Source: Chiloscyllium plagiosum (Eukaryota). From it: a stretch of 22,373 bases of DNA. Shown piece after piece: positions 2,773 to 22,373 of the stretch (positions within the stretch are counted from its first letter, which is position 1; every line of letters starts with the position of its first letter). The stretch is from assembly GCF_004010195.1 (NCBI RefSeq), contig NC_057753.1, positions 434,536 to 456,908 of the forward strand, read 5' to 3'. The notes under the pieces are model-generated. The model did no database searches, was not told where the DNA came from, and was given only the letters and a program-made list of their open reading frames with translations. Made by a program: the position numbers and the translations under genes.

Positions 2773-3475
2773 TTGAAATTTATCCAGAGTAGTCAATTGC
2801 GGGTCCAGTAATTTAAATCAGTAACATCCCTCAGCAGCAAACTTGAAGCATTGAAACGAGTGGTGGTTCGGTCAGGAACGTGTTTAGCAGCAGCGATAAC
2901 AGCGAAGGCCCAGTCGTGTGTGGACTTGCTGGTGCCTCAGCAGGTGAAGTGGCCGAACAAAGCTCTTGGCACACAGGGGGACCAGGTGAACGGACGCTCC
3001 CCGGTGTGGCTGCCCTGGCGTGTCAGCAGACCCCGTGGGCTCTTCAAGCTCTCGTCACACCGGAAAGGTCTGTCAACTGTGTGACTGTGGAGGTGGGTTT
3101 CCAGCTGGGAGGGAGAATTGAATCCCTTCCCACAATAAGAACATCTACACGGTCTCTCTCTGTGGTGCTCACGTCCTTGCATCCCTCCAGGTTGGCAGTT
3201 AGCTGAAGCCTCTTCCACGTGCACTTTTCTCCCCACTATGGACGGTGCGTTGTTCTCTTCAAGCTGTGTAATTGGTTAAAGCTCTTTCTACAGTTAGTTC
3301 ACTGGAACACTCTCACTTGGGTGCATGTCTTGGTGCTTCCTCCAGTCACACCAAAGTTTAAAATCTTCTGAAGCAGACTGACCAGGTAACATTATTCAGA
3401 GGCTGTGCTGAGCGTCTCCCAGGTCTTGACATGATGCTGTGGAATTCTGCCTGAAGATCTTCCCCTTTGAATATC
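2773..3475 (-). pseudogene. Decayed C2H2 (Kruppel-type) zinc-finger exon
   Basis: One intact finger CSYCGKGFNSPSQLETHLHSH (3143-3081), linker HTGERPF, neighbouring fingers broken by stops and frameshifts. Acceptor TTTTGTATTCTCCTTCTGCAG|G at 3476/3475; candidate donor CAA|GTGAGT at 2773/2772. Confidence 0.8.
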
Positions 3476-4000
3476 CTGCAGAAGGAGAATACAAAAAGTC
3501 ATCAGTGTCAGTCCTGGACAGAAATCAGAACAGACAATTCTCATTTCTGTGAACTTCAGCACTCCCCAAAAGCTGTAAATCCCTGCCTCTCACATACACA
3601 CATACGCTCACATCCTCCCTGGGCTGAAATGCACTGTCTCCATCACCCCTTTCCTCCCTTCCCAGTTTTCTCCCTCCCTCCGCTCTGGTCGGGTTCAGTT
3701 CTCCAGCCCCTTCTGGCAGATCAAGACAGAGGCAACGGGGGGTCAATCGTTTCCTCTCCTGGCCAGTGGGAGCCTCAAGCTCTGCCCACCCTGTTCCCTC
3801 CCCAAGGCAGCCTGTTCCCTGTAGCGCCTTGCCAGCCACTCCCAGGATGGCAGACAGAGGGTTGTCTGAGTAACTCGGCCCGTCCGTGGGGAGCAACTCC
3901 TAACACAGTTTTGGTTTGTATCCTGAGGCCCAGCCCAGCCCTGTCACTGCACCAATACCTCCCTTTGTGCCCACAATGGTCACCTGTCTCCTGGGTATTG

Positions 4001-7647: not shown

Positions 7648-7803
7648 GATTAGAGTGGTGCTGGAAAAGCACAGCAGACCAGGTAGCATCCACGGAGCAG
7701 GAAAAGTCCTGATGAAGGGCTTTTGCCTGAAAGTTCAATTTTTCCTGCTCTTCGGATGCTGCCTGGCCTGCTGTGCTTTTCCAGCACCACTCTAATCTTG
7801 ACT
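7648..7803 (+). mobile_element. Palindromic Penelope-derived element with degenerate HHR core
   Basis: Perfect 30-bp inverted repeat 7648-7677/7768-7797. Core CTGATGA-A-GGGC-TTTT-GCCT-GAAA-GTTC at 7709-7736. Confidence 0.8.
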
Positions 7804-10169: not shown

Positions 10170-10583
10170 GGGGGTGTGTGCGTGTGCGTGGTTGTCGCTC
10201 GGTTTTTGCGTTTATGTGTGACGATAAGTTTGCATCTGTGTTTGTCCCAGTAAGAGCACTCATTTGTCTGTGTTTGTCCTGTGTTCGTTTGCTCCAGTAT
10301 GCATGTGTGTTTATCCCTGCGTGTGTCTGTTTGCTCCTGTATCTGTGTCTGTGTTTATCCCTGTGTCTGTTTGCTCCTGTTTGCGTGCCTGTGTTTGTCC
10401 GTGTGTCCCTGTTTGCGTGCCTGTGTTTGTCCCTGTGCATGTCTGTTTGCTCCTGTATGCGTGTCTGTGTTTGTCCCTGTGCATGTCTGTTTGCTCCTGT
10501 ATGCGTGTTTGTTCCTGTGGGTGTGTGTTTGCTTCTGTATGCGTATCTGTGTTTATCCCACTGTGTTGTCTGTTTGCTCCCGT
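10170..10583. repeat. TG-rich minisatellite (~38-44-bp units), left part
   Basis: Recurrent GTCTGTTTGCTCCTGTATGCGTGTCTGTGTTT; 44-bp period between 10441 and 10485. Confidence 0.9.
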
Positions 10584-12527
10584 AAGAGTTATAGCTGGGG
10601 GAAAGGCAATTACGATGCGATTAGGCAAGATTTAGAAAGCGTAGGATGGGGAAGGAAACTGCAGGGGATGGGCACATTAGAAATGTGGAGCTTATTCAAG
10701 GAAAAGCTCCTGTGTGTCCTAGATAAGTATGTACCTGTCAGGCAGGGAGGAAGCTGTAGAGCNNNNNNNNNNNNNNNNNNNNNNNNNNNNNNNNNNNNNN
10801 NNNNNNNNNNNNNNNNNNNNNNNNNNNNNNNNNNNNNNNNNNNNNNNNNNNNNNNNNNNNNNNNNNNNNNNGACAGCATTCACTCTAGAAAACGACAATG
10901 TTGTCGAGGAGAGTACTGAGATACAGGCTACTAGACTAGGTGGGATTGAGGTTCACGAGGAAGAGGTATTAGACATCCTGCAGAGCATGAAAATAGGTAA
11001 GTCCCCTGGGCCGGGTGGGATTTATCCTAGGATCCTCTGAGAAGCCAGGGAGGAGAGTACCGAGCCTTTGGCATTGATCTTTAAATTGTCATTGTCTACA
11101 GGAATAGTGCCAGAAGACTGGAGGATAGCAAATGTGGTTCCCCTGTTCAAGAAGGGGAGTAGAGACAACCCTGGTAATTATAGACCAGTGAGCCTTACTT
11201 CAGTTGCTGGAAAAGTGTTGGAAAAGGTTATAAGAGATAGGATTTATAATCATCTAGAAAAGAATAATTTGATTAGGGATAGTCAGCACGGTTTTGTGAA
11301 GGGTAGGTCGTGTCTCACAAGCCTTATTGAGTTCTTTGAGAAGGTGACCAAACAGGTAGATGAGAGTAAACCGGTTGGTGTGGTGTATATGGATTTCAGC
11401 AAAGCGTTCGATAAGGTTCCCCACAGTAGGCCATTGTACAAAATGCGGAGGAATGGGATTGTGGGAAATATAGCAGTTTGGATCAGTAATTGGTTTGCTG
11501 TAAGAAGACAGAGGGTGGTGGTTGATGGGAAATGTTCGTCCTGGAGTCCAGTTACTAGTGGTGTACCACAAGGGTCGGTGTTGGGTCCACTGCTGTTCAT
11601 CAATCTTATAAATGACCTGGATGAGGGCGTAGAAGGGTGGGTTAGTAAATTTGCAGACGACACTAAGGTCGGTGAAGTTGTGGATAGTGACGAAGGATGT
11701 TGTAGGTTACAGAGAGACATAGATAAGCTGCAGAGTTGGGCTGAAAGGTGGCAAATGGAGTTTATGCAGACAAGTGTGAGGTGATTCACTTTGGTCAGAG
11801 TAACCAGATTGCAAAGTACTGAGCTAATGGTAAGATTCTTGGTAGTGTAGATGAGCAGGGAGATCTCAGTGTCCAGGTACACAGATCCTTGAAAGTTGCC
11901 ACCCAGGTTGACAGGATTGTTAAGAAGGCTTACAGTGTATTAGCTTTTATTAATAGAGAGATCAAGTTCCGGAACCATGAGGTTATGCTACAGCTGTACA
12001 AAACTCTGGTACGGCCACACTTGGAGTATTGTGTACAGTTCTGGTCACCACATTATAAGAAGGATGTGGAAGGGGTGCAGAGGAGATTTACTAGGATGTT
12101 GCCAGGTATGGAGGGAAGGTCTTATGAGGAAAGGCTAAGGGACTTGAGGCTGTTTTTGTTGGAGAGAAGAAGGTTGAGAGGTGACTTATAGAGACACACA
12201 AGATAATCAGAGGGTTAGATGGGGTGGACAGGGAGAGCCTTTTTCCAAGTATGGTGACAGTGAGCACGAGGGGGCATAGCTTTAAATTGAGGGGTGATAG
12301 ATATAGACAGATGTCAGAGGTACTTTCTTTACTCAGAGAGTAGTAAGGGTATGGAATGCTTTAACTGCAACGGTAGTAGATTCGCCAACTTTAAGTGCAT
12401 TTAAGTCGTCATTAGACAAACATATGGGCATACATGGAATAGTGTAGGTTAGATGGGCTTCAGATTGGTATGACAGGTCGGCACAACATCGAGGGCCGAA
12501 GGGCCTGTACTGTGCTGTAATGTTCTA
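10584..12527 (+). mobile_element. 5'-truncated HER1-like CR1 LINE (RT), inactive
   Basis: KSPGPGG, PGNYRPVSLTS, QHGFVKGRSC, YMDFSKAFDKV, GVPQGSVLGP, KFADD, LVRPHLEYCVQFWSP. Premature TGA at 11038-11040 and frameshifts. 3' end GGGCCGAAGGGCCTG is shared with the HE1 SINEs. Contains gap 10763-10871. Confidence 0.95.
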
Positions 12528-13780
12528 CGGATGCGTGTCTGTGTTTATCCCTCTGTGTGTCTGTTTGCTCCTGTATTCGTGTCTGTGTTTATCCCTGTGT
12601 GTGTCTGTTTGCTCCTCTATGCATGTCTGTGTTTATGTCTGTTTGTTCCTGTATGCGTGTCTGTGTTTGTCCGTGTGTGTCTGTTTGCTCCTCTATGCAT
12701 GTCTGTGTTTATGTCTGTTTGTTCCTGTATGNNNNNNNNNNNNNNNNNNNNNNNNNNNNNNNNNNNNNNNNNNNNNNNNNNNNNNNNNNNNNNNNNNNNN
12801 NNNNNNNNNNNNNNNNNNNNNNNNNNNNNNNNNNNNNNNNNNNNNNNNNNNNNNNNNNNNNNNNNNNNNNNNNNNNNNNNNNNNNNNNNNNNNNNNNNNN
12901 NNNNNNNNNNNNNNNNNNNNNNNNNNNNNNNNNNNNNNNNNNNNNNNNNNNNNNNNNNNNNNNNNNNNNNNNNNNNNNNNNNNNNNNNNNNNNNNNNNNN
13001 NNNNNNNNNNNNNNNNNNNNNNNNNNNNNNNNNNNNNNNNNNNNNNNNNNNNNNNNNNNNNNNNNNNNNNNNNNNNNNNNNNNNNNNNNNNNNNNNNNNN
13101 NNNNNNNNNNNNNNNNNNNNNNNNNNNNNNNNNNNNNNNNNNNNNNNNNNNNNNNNNNNNNNNNNNNNNNNNNNNNNNNNNNNNNNNNNNNNNNNNNNNN
13201 NNNNNNNNNNNNNNNNNNNNNNNNNNNNNNNNNNNNNNNNNNNNNNNNNNNNNNNNNNNNNNNNNNNNNNNNNNNNNNNNNNNNNNNNNNNNNNNNNNNN
13301 NNNNNNNNNNNNNNNNNNNNNNNNNNNNNNNNNNNNNNNNNNNNNNNNNNNNNNNNNNNNNNNNNNNNNNNNNNNNNNNNNNNNNNNNNNNNNNNNNNNN
13401 NNNNNNNNNNNNNNNNNNNNNNNNNNNNNNNNNNNNNNNNNNNNNNNNNNNNNNNNNNNNNNNNNNNNNNNNNNNNNNNNNNNNNNNNNNNNNNNNTTTG
13501 CTCCTTTATGCATGTCTGTATTTATCTCTCTGTGTATCTGTTTGCTCCTGTACACGTGTCTGTGTTTACCCAGTGTCTGTTTGCTCCTGTATGCGTGTCT
13601 GTGTTTGTCCCTGGGTGTGTCTGTTTGCTCGTGGTTATGTGCCTGTGTTTGTCCGTGTGGTCTGTTTGCTCCTCTATGCGTGCCTGTGTTTATCCCTCTG
13701 TGTATCTGTTTGCTCCTGGATGCATGTCAGTGTTTGTCCGTGAGTGCGCATCTGTGTTTCTCTGTGCGCATCTGTGTCTG
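12528..13780. repeat. TG-rich minisatellite, right part (spans gap 12732-13497)
   Basis: Same unit as 10170-10583 on both sides of the gap. Confidence 0.88.
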
Positions 13781-15299: not shown

Positions 15300-16936
15300 A
15301 AGGAGAGAGCTCAGAAGAGCCAGGAGGAGACATGAGAAGTTGTTGGCAGATAGGATCAGGGTAAACCCTAAGGCTTTCTATAGGTATTTAAGGGATAAAA
15401 GAATGACGAGAATAAGATTAGGCACAATCAAGGATAGTAGTGGGAAGTTGTGTGTGGAGTCAGAGGAGACAGGGGAAGCACTAAATGAATATTTTTCTGA
15501 CAGCATTCACTCTAGAAAACGACAATGTTGTCGAGGAGAGTACTGAGATACAGGCTACTAGACTAGGGGGTGGGATTGAGGTTCACAAGGAAGAGGTATT
15601 AGAAATCCTGCAGAGCATGAAAATAGATAAGTCCCCTGGGCCGGGTGGGATTTATCCTAGGATCCTCTGGGAAGCCAGGGAGGAGATTACCGAGCCTTTG
15701 GCATTGATCTTTAAATTGTCATTGTCTACAGGTATAGTGCCAGAAGACTGGAGGATAGCAAATGTGATTCCCCTGTTCAAGAAGGGGAGTAGAGACAACC
15801 CTGGTAATTATAGACCAGTAAGCCTTACTTCTGTTGTTGGTAAAGTGTTGGAAAAGGTTATAAGAGAAGGATTTATAATCGGCTAGAAAAGAATAATTTG
15901 AATAGGGATAGTCAGCACGGTTTTGTGAAGGGTAGGTCGTGCCTCACAAACCTTATTGTGTTCTTTGAGAAGGTGACCAAACAGGTAGATGAGAGTAAAC
16001 TGGTGGTTGTGTTGTATATGGATTTCAGCAAGGCGTTCGATAAGGTTCCCCACAGTAGGTTATTGTACAAAATGCGGAGGAATGGGATTGTGGGAGATAT
16101 AGCAGTTTGGATCATTAATTGGCTTGCTGAAAGAAGACAGAGGGTGGTGGTTGATGGGAAATGTTCATCCTGGAGTCCAATTACTAGTGGTGTACCGCAA
16201 GAGTCAGTTTTGGGTCCACTGCTGTTTGTCATCTTTATAAACGACCTGGATGAGGGTGTAGAAGGATGGGTTAGTAAATTTGCAGATGACACTAAGGTCG
16301 GTGAAGTTGTGGATAGTGACGAAGGATGTTGTAAATTAGAGAGAGACATAGATAAACTGCAGAGCTGGGCTGAGAGGTGGCAAATGGAGTTTAATGCAGC
16401 CAAGTATGAGGTGATTTACTTTGGTCAGAGTAACCGGAATGCAAAGTACTGATGGTAAGATTCTTGGTAGTGCAGATGAGCAGAGAGATCTGTGTCCATG
16501 TACACAGATCCTTGAAAGTTGCCACCCAGGTTGACAGGGTTAAGAAGGCTTACAGTGTTTTTGCTTTTATTAATAGAGAGATCGGGTTCCGGAGCCATGA
16601 GGTTATGCTACAGCTGTACAAAACTCTGGTGCAGCCGCACTTGGAGTATTGTGTACAGTTCTGGTCACCGCATTATAAGAAGGATGTGGAAGCTTTGGAA
16701 AGGGTGCAGAGGAGATTTACTAGGATGACAGATGTCAGAGGTAGTTTCTTTACTCAGAGAGTAGTAATGCTTTGCCTGCAACGGTAGTAGATTTGCCTAC
16801 TTTAAGTCGTCATTGGACAAGCATATGGATGTACATGGAATAGTGTAGGTTAGATGGGCTTCAGATTGGTATGACAGGTCGGTGCAACATCGAAGGCCGA
16901 AGAGCCTGTACTGCGCTGTAATGTTCTATATTCTAT
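15300..16936 (+). mobile_element. HER1-like CR1 LINE (RT), inactive, internally deleted
   Basis: Closely similar to 10872-12527. Frameshifts near 15870 and 16450. Lacks ~208 bp equivalent to 12099-12306. Tail TGTAATGTTCTATATTCTAT. Confidence 0.95.
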
Positions 16937-16949
16937 CTCACCATTTGTG

Positions 16950-18070
16950 GAGAGAGAGTCAAGTATGACTTTTCTCTGGAACTAAAAGAAGCTTGCTTCA
17001 TCATTATCTAGGTTTAACGTGAGCATTGAATTCACTGCTTCTCTCTTTTGGCATATGTTGCCCGAACCTGCTGTGTGACTCCAGCATTTCCGGTGTTTAT
17101 TTCAGATTTCCAGCAATCACAGCATTTGGCCTTTGATTTAGTGAAGAGGAGTCAGGCTGGACTCGAGGTGGTAATTCTGCTTCTCTCTCCACAGATGTTG
17201 CTCGACCTGCTGAGCTTCTATGTACTATGCTTGTTTCAGATTTCTTCAGTATTTTGCTTTTATTTATTGAAGCAGAGTCATACTGGATTCAAAACATTAC
17301 GGGCTGGGGCTCCTTCCCTCCTTCCACAGATGCTGCCAGGCTCAGTCAGTTTCTCCAGCGTTTTCTGCATATGGTTCAGATTTCCAGCATCCCACAGTAT
17401 TTTCCTTTTATTCTTAACCCCACTAAAAAGAGAATCACACCAGACTCCAAACGTTAACTCCGTTTCCCTATCCGCAGATGCTGCTTGACTCGCTGAATGT
17501 TGCCCGCTGTTGCTGATTTTCTTGCAGTATACCCTGTGCTTCTTTCAGATTGCCAGCCTTCACAACATTTGGCTTTCATTTATCATGGAAGAGTCATAGG
17601 AGAGTCGACACGTTGCTTCTGGGGCTTTTCCCCTCTCCCCACAGATGCTGCCAGACCCATTGACCCATTTTCAGCATTTGTTTCAGATTTCCGACATCCA
17701 CAGTGTTTTGATTTTTTCATGCCCCACCCTCAACCCCAACCCCAACAATAAGAATCATAGCAAACACAAAACATCAACTCTGGGTCACTTTCCTTCTCTC
17801 CACAGATGTAACAAAACCTGCTGAGTTTCTCCAACATCTTCTGTGACTGTTTCAGATTTCCATCAATATTTCCTTTTTATTCCCACTCCCTCCCCCAGAG
17901 TAGAATCACACTGGACTTGAAACATTAACTCTGCTTCTCCCTCTGCTGATGTGGCCAGACCTGCTGAGTTCTCTAGCATTTTCCGTGTTTGTTTCAGAAT
18001 TCCAGATCTGTACTATTTTCCTCTTAATTTACTCAAGAAGAGTCTCTCTGGACCCAAAACACTGTATCGT
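16950..18070 (+). repeat. Degenerate tandem array (134-169-bp units) with hammerhead-like cores
   Basis: Anchor TTCAGA at 17101, 17235, 17375, 17544, 17682, 17851, 17993. Units carry CAGATGCTGC...ACCTGCTGAG-like and GAGTC-N6-GACTC-GAAAC-like motifs. Confidence 0.8.
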
Positions 18071-18095
18071 GGTTTATTTCCCTCTGTCCTCGGAT

Positions 18096-18165
18096 GCCAC
18101 CAGGGACCCAGGTTCCACCTTCGGGCAGTTTGCACATTTTCCCAGGGTCTGTGCGGGTTTCCTTC
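18096..18165 (+). mobile_element. Degenerate HE1-like SINE fragment
   Basis: CCAGGGACCCAGGTTC...GTTTGCACATT...GTCTGTGCGGGTTTCC matches 18639-18720. Confidence 0.6.
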
Positions 18166-18595
18166 TGGTCTGGCCCAGCACAGTGTGGCATCCTTTTGTC
18201 CTGGCATGACGGTCTCCCAGCCCAGCATGGTGGTCTCTTGGTGGCCCATAGCAGTCTTTTGCCCTGTTGTAACCTCAGCGTGGACTTCCACCTCAAGGTG
18301 ATTCCAGTGTGGTCTCTCGGCCTCTAGTTGAAGCCCAGCGTGGTCTGAAGGCTAGCTGCCAGTGTGGACTGGGTTGGAAAGACTGGCGTTCTGAACTTTT
18401 TATTTTCCCTATTTTCCAACTTATTCCTCCGATCTGCAATGCTGGACTTTTTGTTTCTTGATTTGTCTTAATCTTTTCCCCGAAGAACTTGCACTGAACT
18501 GTCCACACCTGGGTACCTTGTTCCGAAGATGGCACCTTAAATGGTGACTTGTAAACCTTTTTGTTTCAGGGATTCCATTTTCTGTCACCGTGTTA

Positions 18596-18900
18596 GGCAG
18601 CACGGTGGCCCAATAGTTAGCACTGCTGCCTCACAGCGCCAGGGACCCAGGTTCGATTCCAGCCTTGGGCAACTGTCTGTGTGAAGTTTGCACATTCTCC
18701 CCGTGTCTGCGTGGGTGGGTGCTTCCACAGTCCAAACATGTGCAGGTCAGGGTGAATTGGCCACGCTAAATTGCTCATAGTCTTAGGTGCATTAGTCAGA
18801 TGGAAACGGGTCTGGGTAGGTTACTATTTGGAGGGTCGGTGTGGACTTGTTGGGCCGAAGGGCCTGCTTCCACACTGTACGGAATCTAACTAATCTATCT
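18596..18900 (+). mobile_element. HE1-like tRNA-derived SINE
   Basis: GGCAGCACGGTGGCCCAATAGTTAGCACTGCTGCCTCACAGCGCC, B box GGTTCGATTCC, tail GGGCCGAAGGGCCTG, then short simple repeats. Confidence 0.92.
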
Positions 18901-19634: not shown

Positions 19635-19899
19635 CGCAGAAGCAGAATTTGAAGAATTTGAAGAACAGTAATCATTGCCCCAGTAAACTCAAACCCACCA
19701 CACATCAGGAAAACAACAATTTCAAGAGCCACTGCATTCAAAGTGGTAAGAGACAACAGACATAAGTTAGCAACAAAAGCAGTTCTAATTTTAAAAAAAA
19801 CAAACCTGACACGTCCCTGGACAAACTTGGAAACTTTTCACTGCTCACATGTGACATTAAAGCGAATTCAATTCATTCAGCATTTTCGCTGAGTCCCTC

Positions 19900-20590
19900 C
19901 CCTGGCAAGAGGCGATGCCCCGCCCCCTCACGCTGCTGCCCCGCCCACCTCGTGCGGCCGCGCCCACTCCCACTCCCGGCGGCAAGGGCTCTGACTCCGG
20001 CCCCGCCCACTCCATGCGGGCCCCGCCCAGCTGCTTCATGCCCCGCCCATTACCAGCGAGGAGCCCCTCACGAGACAGCCGCGCAGGCGCCCCCTACCTA
20101 AGATGGCGGCGACCGGTCAACGGTCTTCGATCCCGACCCGCGAAAATGGCGGCTGCTCCGCTCCAACGGGCCGGCCTCTTCCCGCCCCAAAAGGTGGGAT
20201 AAGTACATATTAAAACAACAGAGATCTGTTCTCCGCCCTTTCTCTCCGCTCCGCGCACAAAGTCTTCGGAAAGCTGGCGAGCCCCCAAACATCCCGAGGG
20301 TTTCCGTTCCGCGATCACCGTTCCTACCCGCATGTGCGTCCTCTCCTCCCCCCAGATGCCCGGCGACGCGGCGCATGCTCCCAGCGTAGCCGCCCCCCGC
20401 GCGCCGACACCGCGGCCACGCCCCACCCAGCCCCGCGCGCCGACACCCCGGCCACGCCCCACCCAGCCCCGCGCGCCGACACCCCGGCCACGCCCCACCC
20501 AGCCCCGCGCGCCGATACCCCGGCCACGCCCCACCCAGCCCCGCGCGCACTAACGGCCCCCCGCGCGCCGAGCTCCCCTAAGTCCCCCGG
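19900..20590. promoter_or_regulatory. CpG-island promoter
   Basis: Very GC- and CpG-rich. Several CCCCGCCC GC boxes at 19918-20048; YY1 motifs AAGATGGCGGC (20100-20110) and AAAATGGCGGC (20143-20153); E2F-like TTCCCGCC (20179-20186); NRF1-like CGCATGTGCG (20329-20338) and GCGCATGC (20371-20378). Confidence 0.8.
20395..20548. repeat. 36-bp GC-rich VNTR, ~4.3 copies
   Basis: Unit CCCCGCGCGCCGACACCCCGGCCACGCCCCACCCAG starts at 20395, 20431, 20467, 20503, with a partial copy at 20539. Confidence 0.95.
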
Positions 20591-20594
20591 CCTT

Positions 20595-21951
20595 CCAGTG
20601 ACTGTATGACTGTAACATTGTAGAGGAGCATTGCTCTGTGTCTGACCCTGTGCTGTACCTGTCCAGGGACTGTATGATGGGAACAGTGTAGAGGAGCATT
20701 GCTCTGTATCAGACCCTGTGCTGTACAAGTCCAGGGACTGTATGACTGTAACAGTGTAGAGGAGCATTGCTCTGTATCTGACCCTGTGCTGTACCTGTCC
20801 AGGGACTGTATGACTGTAACAGTGTAGAGGAGCATTGCTCTGTATCTGACCCTGTGCTGTACCTGTCCAGGGACTGTATGATGGGAACAGTGTAGAGGAG
20901 CATTGCTCTGTATCTGACCCTGTGCTGTACCTGTCCAGGGACTGTATGATGGGAACAGTGTAGAGGAGCATTGCTGTGTATCTGACCCTGTGCTGTACCT
21001 GTCCAGGGACTGTATGATGGGAGCAGTATTGAGGAGCATTGCTCTGTATCAGACCCTGTGCTGTACAAGTCCAGGGTCTGTATGACTGTAACAGTGTAGA
21101 GGAGCATTGCTCTGTATCTGACCCTGTGCTGTACCTGTCCAGGGACTGTATGACTGTAACAGTGTAGCGGAGCTTTGCTCTGTATCTGGCCATGTGCTGT
21201 ACCTGTCCAGGGACTGTATGACTGTATCAGTGTAGAGGAGCTTTGCTCTGTATCTGACCCTGTGCTGTACCTGTCCAGGGACTGTATGACTGGAACAGTG
21301 TAGAGGAGCATTGCTCTATATCTAGCCCTGTGCTGTGTCTGTCCAGGGACTGTATGACTGTAACAGTGTAGCGGAGCTTTGCTCTGTATCTGACCCTGTG
21401 CTGTACCTGTCCAGGGACTGTATGACTGTAACAGTGTAGAGGAGCATTGCTCGGTATCTGACCCTGTTTTGTATCTGTCCAGGGACTGTATGACTATAAC
21501 AGTGTAGAGGAGCATTGCACTGTATCTGACCCTGTGCTGTACCTGTCTAGGGACTGTATGAATGTAACAGTATAGAGGAGCATTGCTGTGTTTCTGACCC
21601 TGTGCTGTACCTTTCCAAGGACTGTATGATTGTAACAGTGTAGAGGAGCATTGCTCTGTATCTGGCCCTGCGCTGTACCTGTCCAGGGACTGTATGCCTG
21701 TAACAGTGTAGAGGAGCATTGCTCTGTATCTGACCCTGTGCTGTACCTGTCCAGGGACTGTATGATGGGAATAGTGTAGAGGAGCTTTACTCTGTATCTG
21801 GCTATGTGCTGTACCTGTCCAGGGACTGTATGATGGGAACAATGTCGAGGAGCATTGCTCTGTATCTGACCCTGTGCTGTGTCTGTCCAGGGACTGTATG
21901 ACTGTAACAGTGTAGAGGAGCTTTGCTCTGCATCTGGCCCTGTGCTGTACC
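20595..21951. repeat. 68-bp satellite, ~20 copies
   Basis: Unit CCAGGGACTGTATGACTGTAACAGTGTAGAGGAGCATTGCTCTGTATCTGACCCTGTGCTGTACCTGT; starts at 20663, 20731, 20799 and onward. Confidence 0.97.
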
Positions 21952-22373
21952 CCGCGCTGGCCTATTACCTGCCCTCGGCCTCTTCATTTCCAACTGCCGC
22001 CGGGACATTAACCGCCTCAACCTGTCGACCCCCCTCCCCCACTCCAACCTCTCACCCTCACAACGTGCAGCCCTCCAATCCCTCTGCTCCAATCCTGACC
22101 TCACCATCAAGCCAGCAGACAAAGGGGGCGCAGTGGTAGTCTGGCGCACTGACCCCTACATCGCTGAAGCCAAACGCCAACTCGAGGACACATCTTCCTA
22201 CCGCCCCCTTGACCATGACCCCACCCCCCATCACCAAACCATCATCTCCCAGACCATACAGAACCTCATCACCTCAGGAGATCTCCCACCCACAGCTACC
22301 AACCTCATAGTCCGGGAACCCCGCACTCCCCGGTCCTACCTCCTTCCCAAGATCCACAAGCCCGACCACCCTG
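21950..22373 (+). mobile_element. Penelope-like element reverse transcriptase, 5'-truncated, continues past window end
   Basis: Open frame from 21950: PRAGLLPALGLFISNCRRDI...NLSPSQRAALQSL...TIKPADKGGAVVVW...YLLPKIHKPDHP. ADKG and LPKIHK are PLE RT hallmarks. Absent from the ORF track. Confidence 0.92.

Follow-up and report, generated by a model that had tools for sequence, protein, structure and literature searches.

We identified seven head-to-tail units, a truncated further body and an inverted copy between positions 16940 and 18103 of a 22,373-nucleotide stretch of the Chiloscyllium plagiosum genome (the window). With a probability of roughly 55%, they are diverged copies of the hammerhead-bearing 3' end of a Penelope-like element (PLE), multiplied by local DNA-level amplification of one fragment and subject to neutral decay since. 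The anatomy is read directly from the DNA, and each step of the proposed origin is reconstructed from it.

Anatomy of the tandem array

The seven units measure ~126-161 bp and are accompanied by a stub and the inverted copy. Cut at the predicted cleavage site, units were 56-77% identical to one another and 73-86% identical to the majority sequence. The seven cores quoted in an earlier note on this DNA were confirmed at 17141, 17267, 17432, 17591, 17752, 17903, and 18032, and its spacings of 134, 140, 169, 138, 169, and 142 bp were reproduced with the body anchor TTCAGA(A/T)TT; from stem II to stem II, the spacings were 126, 157, 159, 161, 151, and 137. The alternation of 140 and 169 could not be kept as a higher-order period, as the two 169-bp spacings stem from different indels, one a private 21-nt insert in unit M3 and the other a long C tract in M4. 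Against 100 dinucleotide shuffles, all 21 pairs among the seven long segments U0 to U6 stood out strongly (z 6.6-25.5), and the short last segment, U7, gave z of 0.8-8.2. TRF at score 30 did not detect the array because its units are too divergent.

The layout is body followed by core, repeated seven times, plus an extra first body and a truncated last body. The extra first body (17030-17140) has no recognisable core ahead of it. A profile built on six units placed it at 17035-17137, followed the last stub to 18103, and left a weak trace on the inverted copy (E 0.52). All units lie on the plus strand and were scored by core letters (of 11) and stem II pairs (of 5). Four were assigned to type A: M0 (17030-17172; core 17141-17172; 7/11, 5/5), M1 (17173-17298; core 17267-17298; 8/11, 5/5), M3 (17456-17614; core 17583-17614; 6/11, 4/5), and M6 (17927-18063; core 18032-18063; 8/11, 4/5). 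The body of M0 runs from about the predicted cleavage site to an ATTTA junction and matched the profile from node 43 on (E 9e-16). Type B comprises M2 (17299-17455; core 17424-17455; 5/11, 4/5), M4 (17615-17775; core 17744-17775; 6/11, 2/5), and M5 (17776-17926; core 17895-17926; 7/11, 4/5). A truncated eighth body with a B-like insert follows on the plus strand at 18064-18103 (profile E 4e-07 together with the core of M6). The array's right end is cut by a SINE-like fragment, with 18127-18169 matching a dispersed repeat at 535-577 in reverse.

At the left end, a minus-strand copy of the same element occupies 16940-16983, and the inverted core reported earlier is clear at 16956-16983. It reads through the 5' strand of helix I (AGTT, 16983-16980), a decayed 5' box, and stem II (AAGTC/GACTC) into the start of the body, with the GAAA region deleted. 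Behind 16955, two related organisms, B and C, have 12 extra letters in which a decayed GAAA-like segment is present, and the 12-nt deletion at 16955 is likely recent in this lineage. The inverted copy appears to be interrupted by a LINE remnant on the plus strand (15300-16938; RVT_1 E 1.9e-24 at 15844-16449; near-copy at 10939-12527), the 3' end of which cuts it. Both array ends are thus cut by later insertions, and a target-site duplication is unreadable there. The two LINE copies (10939-12527 and 15569-16928) are 92-96% identical, lie 4.6 kb apart, and adjoin assembly gaps; a 44-bp TG-rich tandem repeat at 10265-13742 is interrupted by the LINE.

Hammerhead ancestry

A minimal-hammerhead descriptor of 15 scored positions, scanned over 41,574 window positions, reached 15/15 at two places only, 2634 and 7709. 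The best two array units scored 12/15, a level reached by 41 of the 41,574 positions, and single units do not stand out as hammerheads. For the family, descent from a PLE-type ancestor that carried a minimal type I hammerhead is nevertheless upheld by three independent lines: the register shared with sister elements, CpG decay, and stem II covariation.

The first line comes from a sister PLE-end family with an intact minimal core on the plus strand at 2634-2661 (15/15; inverted arms 2558-2625 and 2665-2732) and a second sister core, also on the plus strand, at 7709-7736 (15/15; inverted arms 7648-7705 and 7740-7797), both with 11/11 scored core positions. The array profile matches the arms at 2634 (E 3.8e-05 and 0.0044) and those at 7709 (E 0.0003 and 0.0067), and GAAACGT stands in register between the profile and both sister elements. 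The stem II sequence differs from that of the 2634 family, as the earlier note had stated. The inserts themselves (2558-2732 and 7648-7797) are palindromic PLE ends with the intact core in the loop, and in the insert at 7709 the arms pair into a long helix I that encloses the core (fold z -3.0).

Second, the states at the two core CpGs are those of CpG decay. The first reads CA in 3 units, CG in 2, TG in 1, and CC in 1 (6/7 within CG, CA, or TG), and the second CA in 4, CG in 2, and TG in 1 (7/7), which points to CG as the ancestral state; the decay products CA and TG explain much of the damage, in agreement with the earlier proposal.

The third line is stem II, where G10.1 is kept in 7/7 units, C11.1 in 6/7, and 28 of the 35 pairs of the 5-bp stem are present. 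Among the 24 of 2,412 rows listed, paralog loose-end consensuses (hundreds of contigs; agreement ~0.5) have either G-C or A-T at stem II pair 2, a compensatory change, and they also include GAAAC, AAAAC, and GAAAT variants.

The 5' box is the weak part of this ancestry, with C3 in 2/7 units, U4 in 3/7, and G5 in 2/7. The CpG-aware consensus of all seven units has 9/11 core letters; that of type A has 10/11 (C3 missing) and 5/5 stem II pairs, and the B-type consensus has 5/11, with a shared G10.3>A that leaves an A-C mismatch in stem II. The ancestor proposed earlier, CUGANGA/GAAA, is borne out by the A-type consensus except at C3, but CUGA finds no majority among the seven cores. The palindrome given with it, AACGUU, does not stand: in the minimal-hammerhead numbering of PMC4209133, the functional palindrome is A15.1-C-G-U16.1. 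No copy is intact, as had been noted (0/7 units complete, 5-8/11 core letters each), and the sequence comparisons point to hammerhead ancestry for the family rather than for any single copy. A search with Rfam covariance models gave no hammerhead match to E 10 and missed the intact cores at 2634 and 7709 too, the search being blind to this motif. When the seven core regions were folded, no minimum structure resembled a hammerhead, and none of the regions folded clearly better than its shuffles (z -1.8 to +1.1).

Junctions, unit types, and mode of amplification

A type I hammerhead requires helix I, beginning at pair 2.1-1.1. This pair closes at 0/7 junctions and is absent from the A and B consensus also, position 2.1 being A or C and position 1.1 being A or G in 7/7 units. 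C3 is present at 1/4 A junctions. In minimal hammerheads, helix I has 4-5 bp (PMC4209133); for this family it is obtainable only by combining the AGTT of the inverted copy with the array majority AACT. At 4/4 A junctions, ATTTA stands right before the box in the same register, and dispersed copies end in letters that match it, which suggests a join that linked the 3' end of the element to the catalytic box and cut out the arm. In tandem form the ribozyme probably never worked, and since the junctions lack the helix I arm, the array likely multiplied as ordinary DNA.

The two unit types bear on the same question. M2, M4, and M5 share a C-rich linker, stem II GAATC, and a G-rich insert of 8-9 nt that follows the cleavage site; none of the three occurs in M0, M1, M3, or M6. 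All three characters mark the same 3 of 7 units, a coincidence of 1/35 for each added character, and the units run A A B A B B A before the B-like stub. As the B characters are linked across the junction and the B consensus is broken, a dead ribozyme would have been copied at least three times along with its junction. The B-type features look local: summed depth at 17783 was 155, 86, and 573 in three runs, compared with 38,507, 43,299, and 98,542 for the bin, and contigs covering 17783 often lack the B insert.

These observations leave unsupported the self-cleaving rolling-circle origin that the earlier note had put forward, in which tandem RNA of a non-LTR retrozyme self-cleaved into ~135-nt monomers or circles that a PLE reverse transcriptase then copied into this site as a multimer. 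Helix I is kept in the inverted copy and closes at none of the array's junctions, the broken B variant was copied together with its junction, a single circle would yield one unit type, and dispersed copies appear not to run on into a core. We consider such a relic somewhat unlikely, even though the tree is near-star, the first body begins at about the cleavage site, the unit size is near the small end of reported families with seven units being typical, such elements are reported in one chondrichthyan (bioRxiv 10.64898/2026.07.22.740005), and a PLE reverse transcriptase lies in the window. The earlier note's own counter-reading, local duplication of one dispersed repeat, fits better than a retrozyme through the junction and B-variant evidence.

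The trees carry less of the argument. Between-unit distances are 0.29-0.63 substitutions per site, and internal branches make up 15% of the length of a substitution-only tree. A first tree gave the B clade a support of 90/83, inflated by columns beside the insert, and was set aside; in the stricter tree relied on here, made without indel-adjacent columns, support was 69/38 for the B clade and 90/79 for M2+M4, and in the strict analysis the best trio by shared states was not B (p 0.056). Given this weak support, two indels and one or two substitutions carry the unit hierarchy.

Deep, star-like divergence, together with a family found on thousands of contigs, would also fit serial independent insertions, with each PLE end piece arriving separately in the T-rich tail of the copy before it. 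Such a series would have to produce four junctions identical in register and without the helix I arm, characters that co-segregate on both sides of the junction (1/35), A at 10.2 in 7/7 stems although paralog consensuses often have G, and repeated capture of a B insert that is rare among paralogs, and we regard it as quite improbable.

We therefore return to DNA-level amplification of one fragment, for which the following course is proposed. A PLE enzyme would have placed a short end fragment here, accompanied by the inverted 5' copy that is usual for such insertions. One event would then have joined the T-rich 3' end to the 5' catalytic box, either as a PLE partial tandem or by DNA duplication, two routes that are not separable here. 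Unequal crossing-over or slippage would have expanded the resulting unit, copying variant B three to four times with its 5' box and one stem II pair already lost; local amplification of pLTRs through unequal crossover is discussed as a model in bioRxiv 10.64898/2026.07.22.740005. Neutral decay with CpG loss would have followed, and later LINE and SINE insertions would have cut both ends. The array has likely been inert since amplification.

Several features speak against this route. The substitution tree is near-star and the B clade weak in its strict form; the start of the first body falls at about the predicted cleavage site, and the linkage of characters extends from cleavage site to cleavage site, as in a retrozyme monomer. 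Two indel variants are known from coral retrozymes as well (PMC7229834), and a few contig joints from body to core, among the 15 of 301 listed, could represent tandem pairs at other loci. Unit divergence could in principle hide an ancestral helix I, though four junctions agree. A shark retrozyme array could instead have formed at the RNA level: a PLE reverse transcriptase would have copied multimeric or circular ~135-nt end-piece RNA from the cleavage site on, switching between two monomer variants, and the junction, with the 3' end joined to the catalytic box, would need no helix I in cis. We hold this version to be unlikely; were it true, the array would be a snapshot of how a pLTR becomes a retrozyme and would show that broken monomers can hitch-hike.

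Genomic context and relation to known elements

The family is dispersed and very abundant. In three runs, 8,135, 11,038, and 10,411 contigs aligned at 80% likeness to 16930-18600, a range that includes other repeats right of 18100, and one body bin had a summed depth of 155,507 compared with 13-32 for single-copy contigs of the same run, a rough sign of copy number. Dispersed copies leaving the match at 17862 run into TTTTA and then A/T-rich sequence, not CTG (297, 437, and 395 contigs). Body-to-core joints are few among the 15 of 301 joints listed (17392 to 17912 and 17200 to 17911) and may be tandem pairs at other loci. Opposite-strand joints among contigs correspond to inverted pairs elsewhere, and PLE insertions with inverted pairs have been described (PMC8557442). 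Family patterns were absent from the viral contigs, metagenome contigs, and prokaryote genomes searched, as expected of a shark repeat.

The array is present at the same place in organisms B and C (~4% different). Four single-copy contig pieces span it in B (3.8% different), and three single-copy pieces represent it in C (4.3% different), with 17636-17909 not among the listed pieces. Array pieces differ by 4.1% (B) and 4.7% (C), compared with 3.2% and 3.9% for a piece mostly outside. Divergence in the array is not under that of its flank and hence gives no sign of constraint. Set against the ~4% between organisms, the unit distances would make the array roughly ten times older than those splits. 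From a polyA single-cell RNA run (~2% read), we recovered 594 partial reads, of which 541 were <90% alike and 3 were >=99% alike; they did not pile up at starts or ends. The reads represent paralog transcripts, uninformative on the array locus and on circles.

Retention of the array for a host function, as intronic RNA structure or as regulatory DNA near a CpG-island promoter, is highly improbable. Its presence in three organisms and a CpG island 2 kb away would suit such a role, but the organisms differ in the array at least as much as in the flank, and no core region clearly outfolds its shuffles. The island spans 19800-20600 (o/e 0.9-1.2), and a C2H2 zinc-finger coding remnant (2937-3490) and a splice-acceptor-like site (3477) lie on the minus strand. 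If remnant and island belong to one gene, the array would be intronic and the gene antisense to the hammerhead strand. At the island's edge, a 36-bp GC-rich unit recurs in 4.3 nearly identical copies (20395-20548); 20594-21951 holds 20 copies of a 68-bp minisatellite (~90% alike, almost CpG-free), followed by a PLE reverse transcriptase fragment. This fragment, the N-terminal part of an open reading frame on the plus strand (21962-22373) that the window end truncates, is 92% identical to a Chiloscyllium punctatum protein, which points to a bamboo shark or something closely related as host; longer relatives carry PF00078 and PF01541 (reverse transcriptase, GIY-YIG). The fragment indicates PLE enzymes in the genome and is not linked to the array family.

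Minimal type I hammerheads in the pLTRs of metazoan PLEs were published by Cervera and De la Pena (2014, PMC4209133). As described there, they share with the array an extra nucleotide between A9 and 10.1, G10.1-C11.1, a palindromic 15.2-16.2 (CG), and the lack of helix III, as well as many solo copies from truncated PLEs, nearby opposite-strand copies, and strong variation of stem II between families. The array differs from that description in a motif decayed in every copy, the seven-unit tandem, and junctions without the helix I 5' strand. Like the PLE insertions of Craig et al. (2021, PMC8557442), in which partial tandems stand next to an inverted 5'-truncated copy, the array has an inverted copy on the 5' side of its direct series of 3'-end pieces; unlike them, it has seven to eight short units, no ORF, and two locally derived types.

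Metazoan non-LTR retrozymes, as characterised in PMC7229834 and by Li, Clavereau and Pollet (2026, bioRxiv 10.64898/2026.07.22.740005), likewise consist of short head-to-tail units, non-coding, low in GC, derived from PLE pLTRs, and with a type I hammerhead motif. Their definition calls for at least 2 consecutive units with complete hammerheads, whereas the array has head-to-tail units with a decayed motif, 0/7 of them complete, and its reconstructed unit has no helix I to close a junction. The definition in Cervera and De la Pena (2020, PMC7229834) adds self-cleavage and circular RNAs, and coral retrozymes in that account likewise occur as two indel variants. According to the preprint (bioRxiv 10.64898/2026.07.22.740005), 20 of 31 vertebrate genomes carry pLTR-derived tandem non-LTR retrozymes, among them that of the sole chondrichthyan sampled, 75% of families have at most seven units, and 1 of 9 tested dimers cleaved. 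Our literature search found no publication on this family or locus; the supplements of the preprint, outside that search, may list the family. A further candidate, PMC6155905, was discarded, as its 'shark' describes the shape of the hammerhead motif and not the animal.

The array adds another remnant to the hammerhead-bearing PLE ends with which this genome is filled. It offers a worked case for the question raised by the 2026 preprint, namely whether pLTR tandems arise by RNA rolling-circle or by unequal crossover. In this array, both the junction and the duplication of a broken variant speak for the DNA route, a warning that hammerhead-like units in tandem do not by themselves count as evidence for a retrozyme. 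Should the RNA route prove correct instead, the array would be an old vertebrate example of the birth of a retrozyme from a pLTR.
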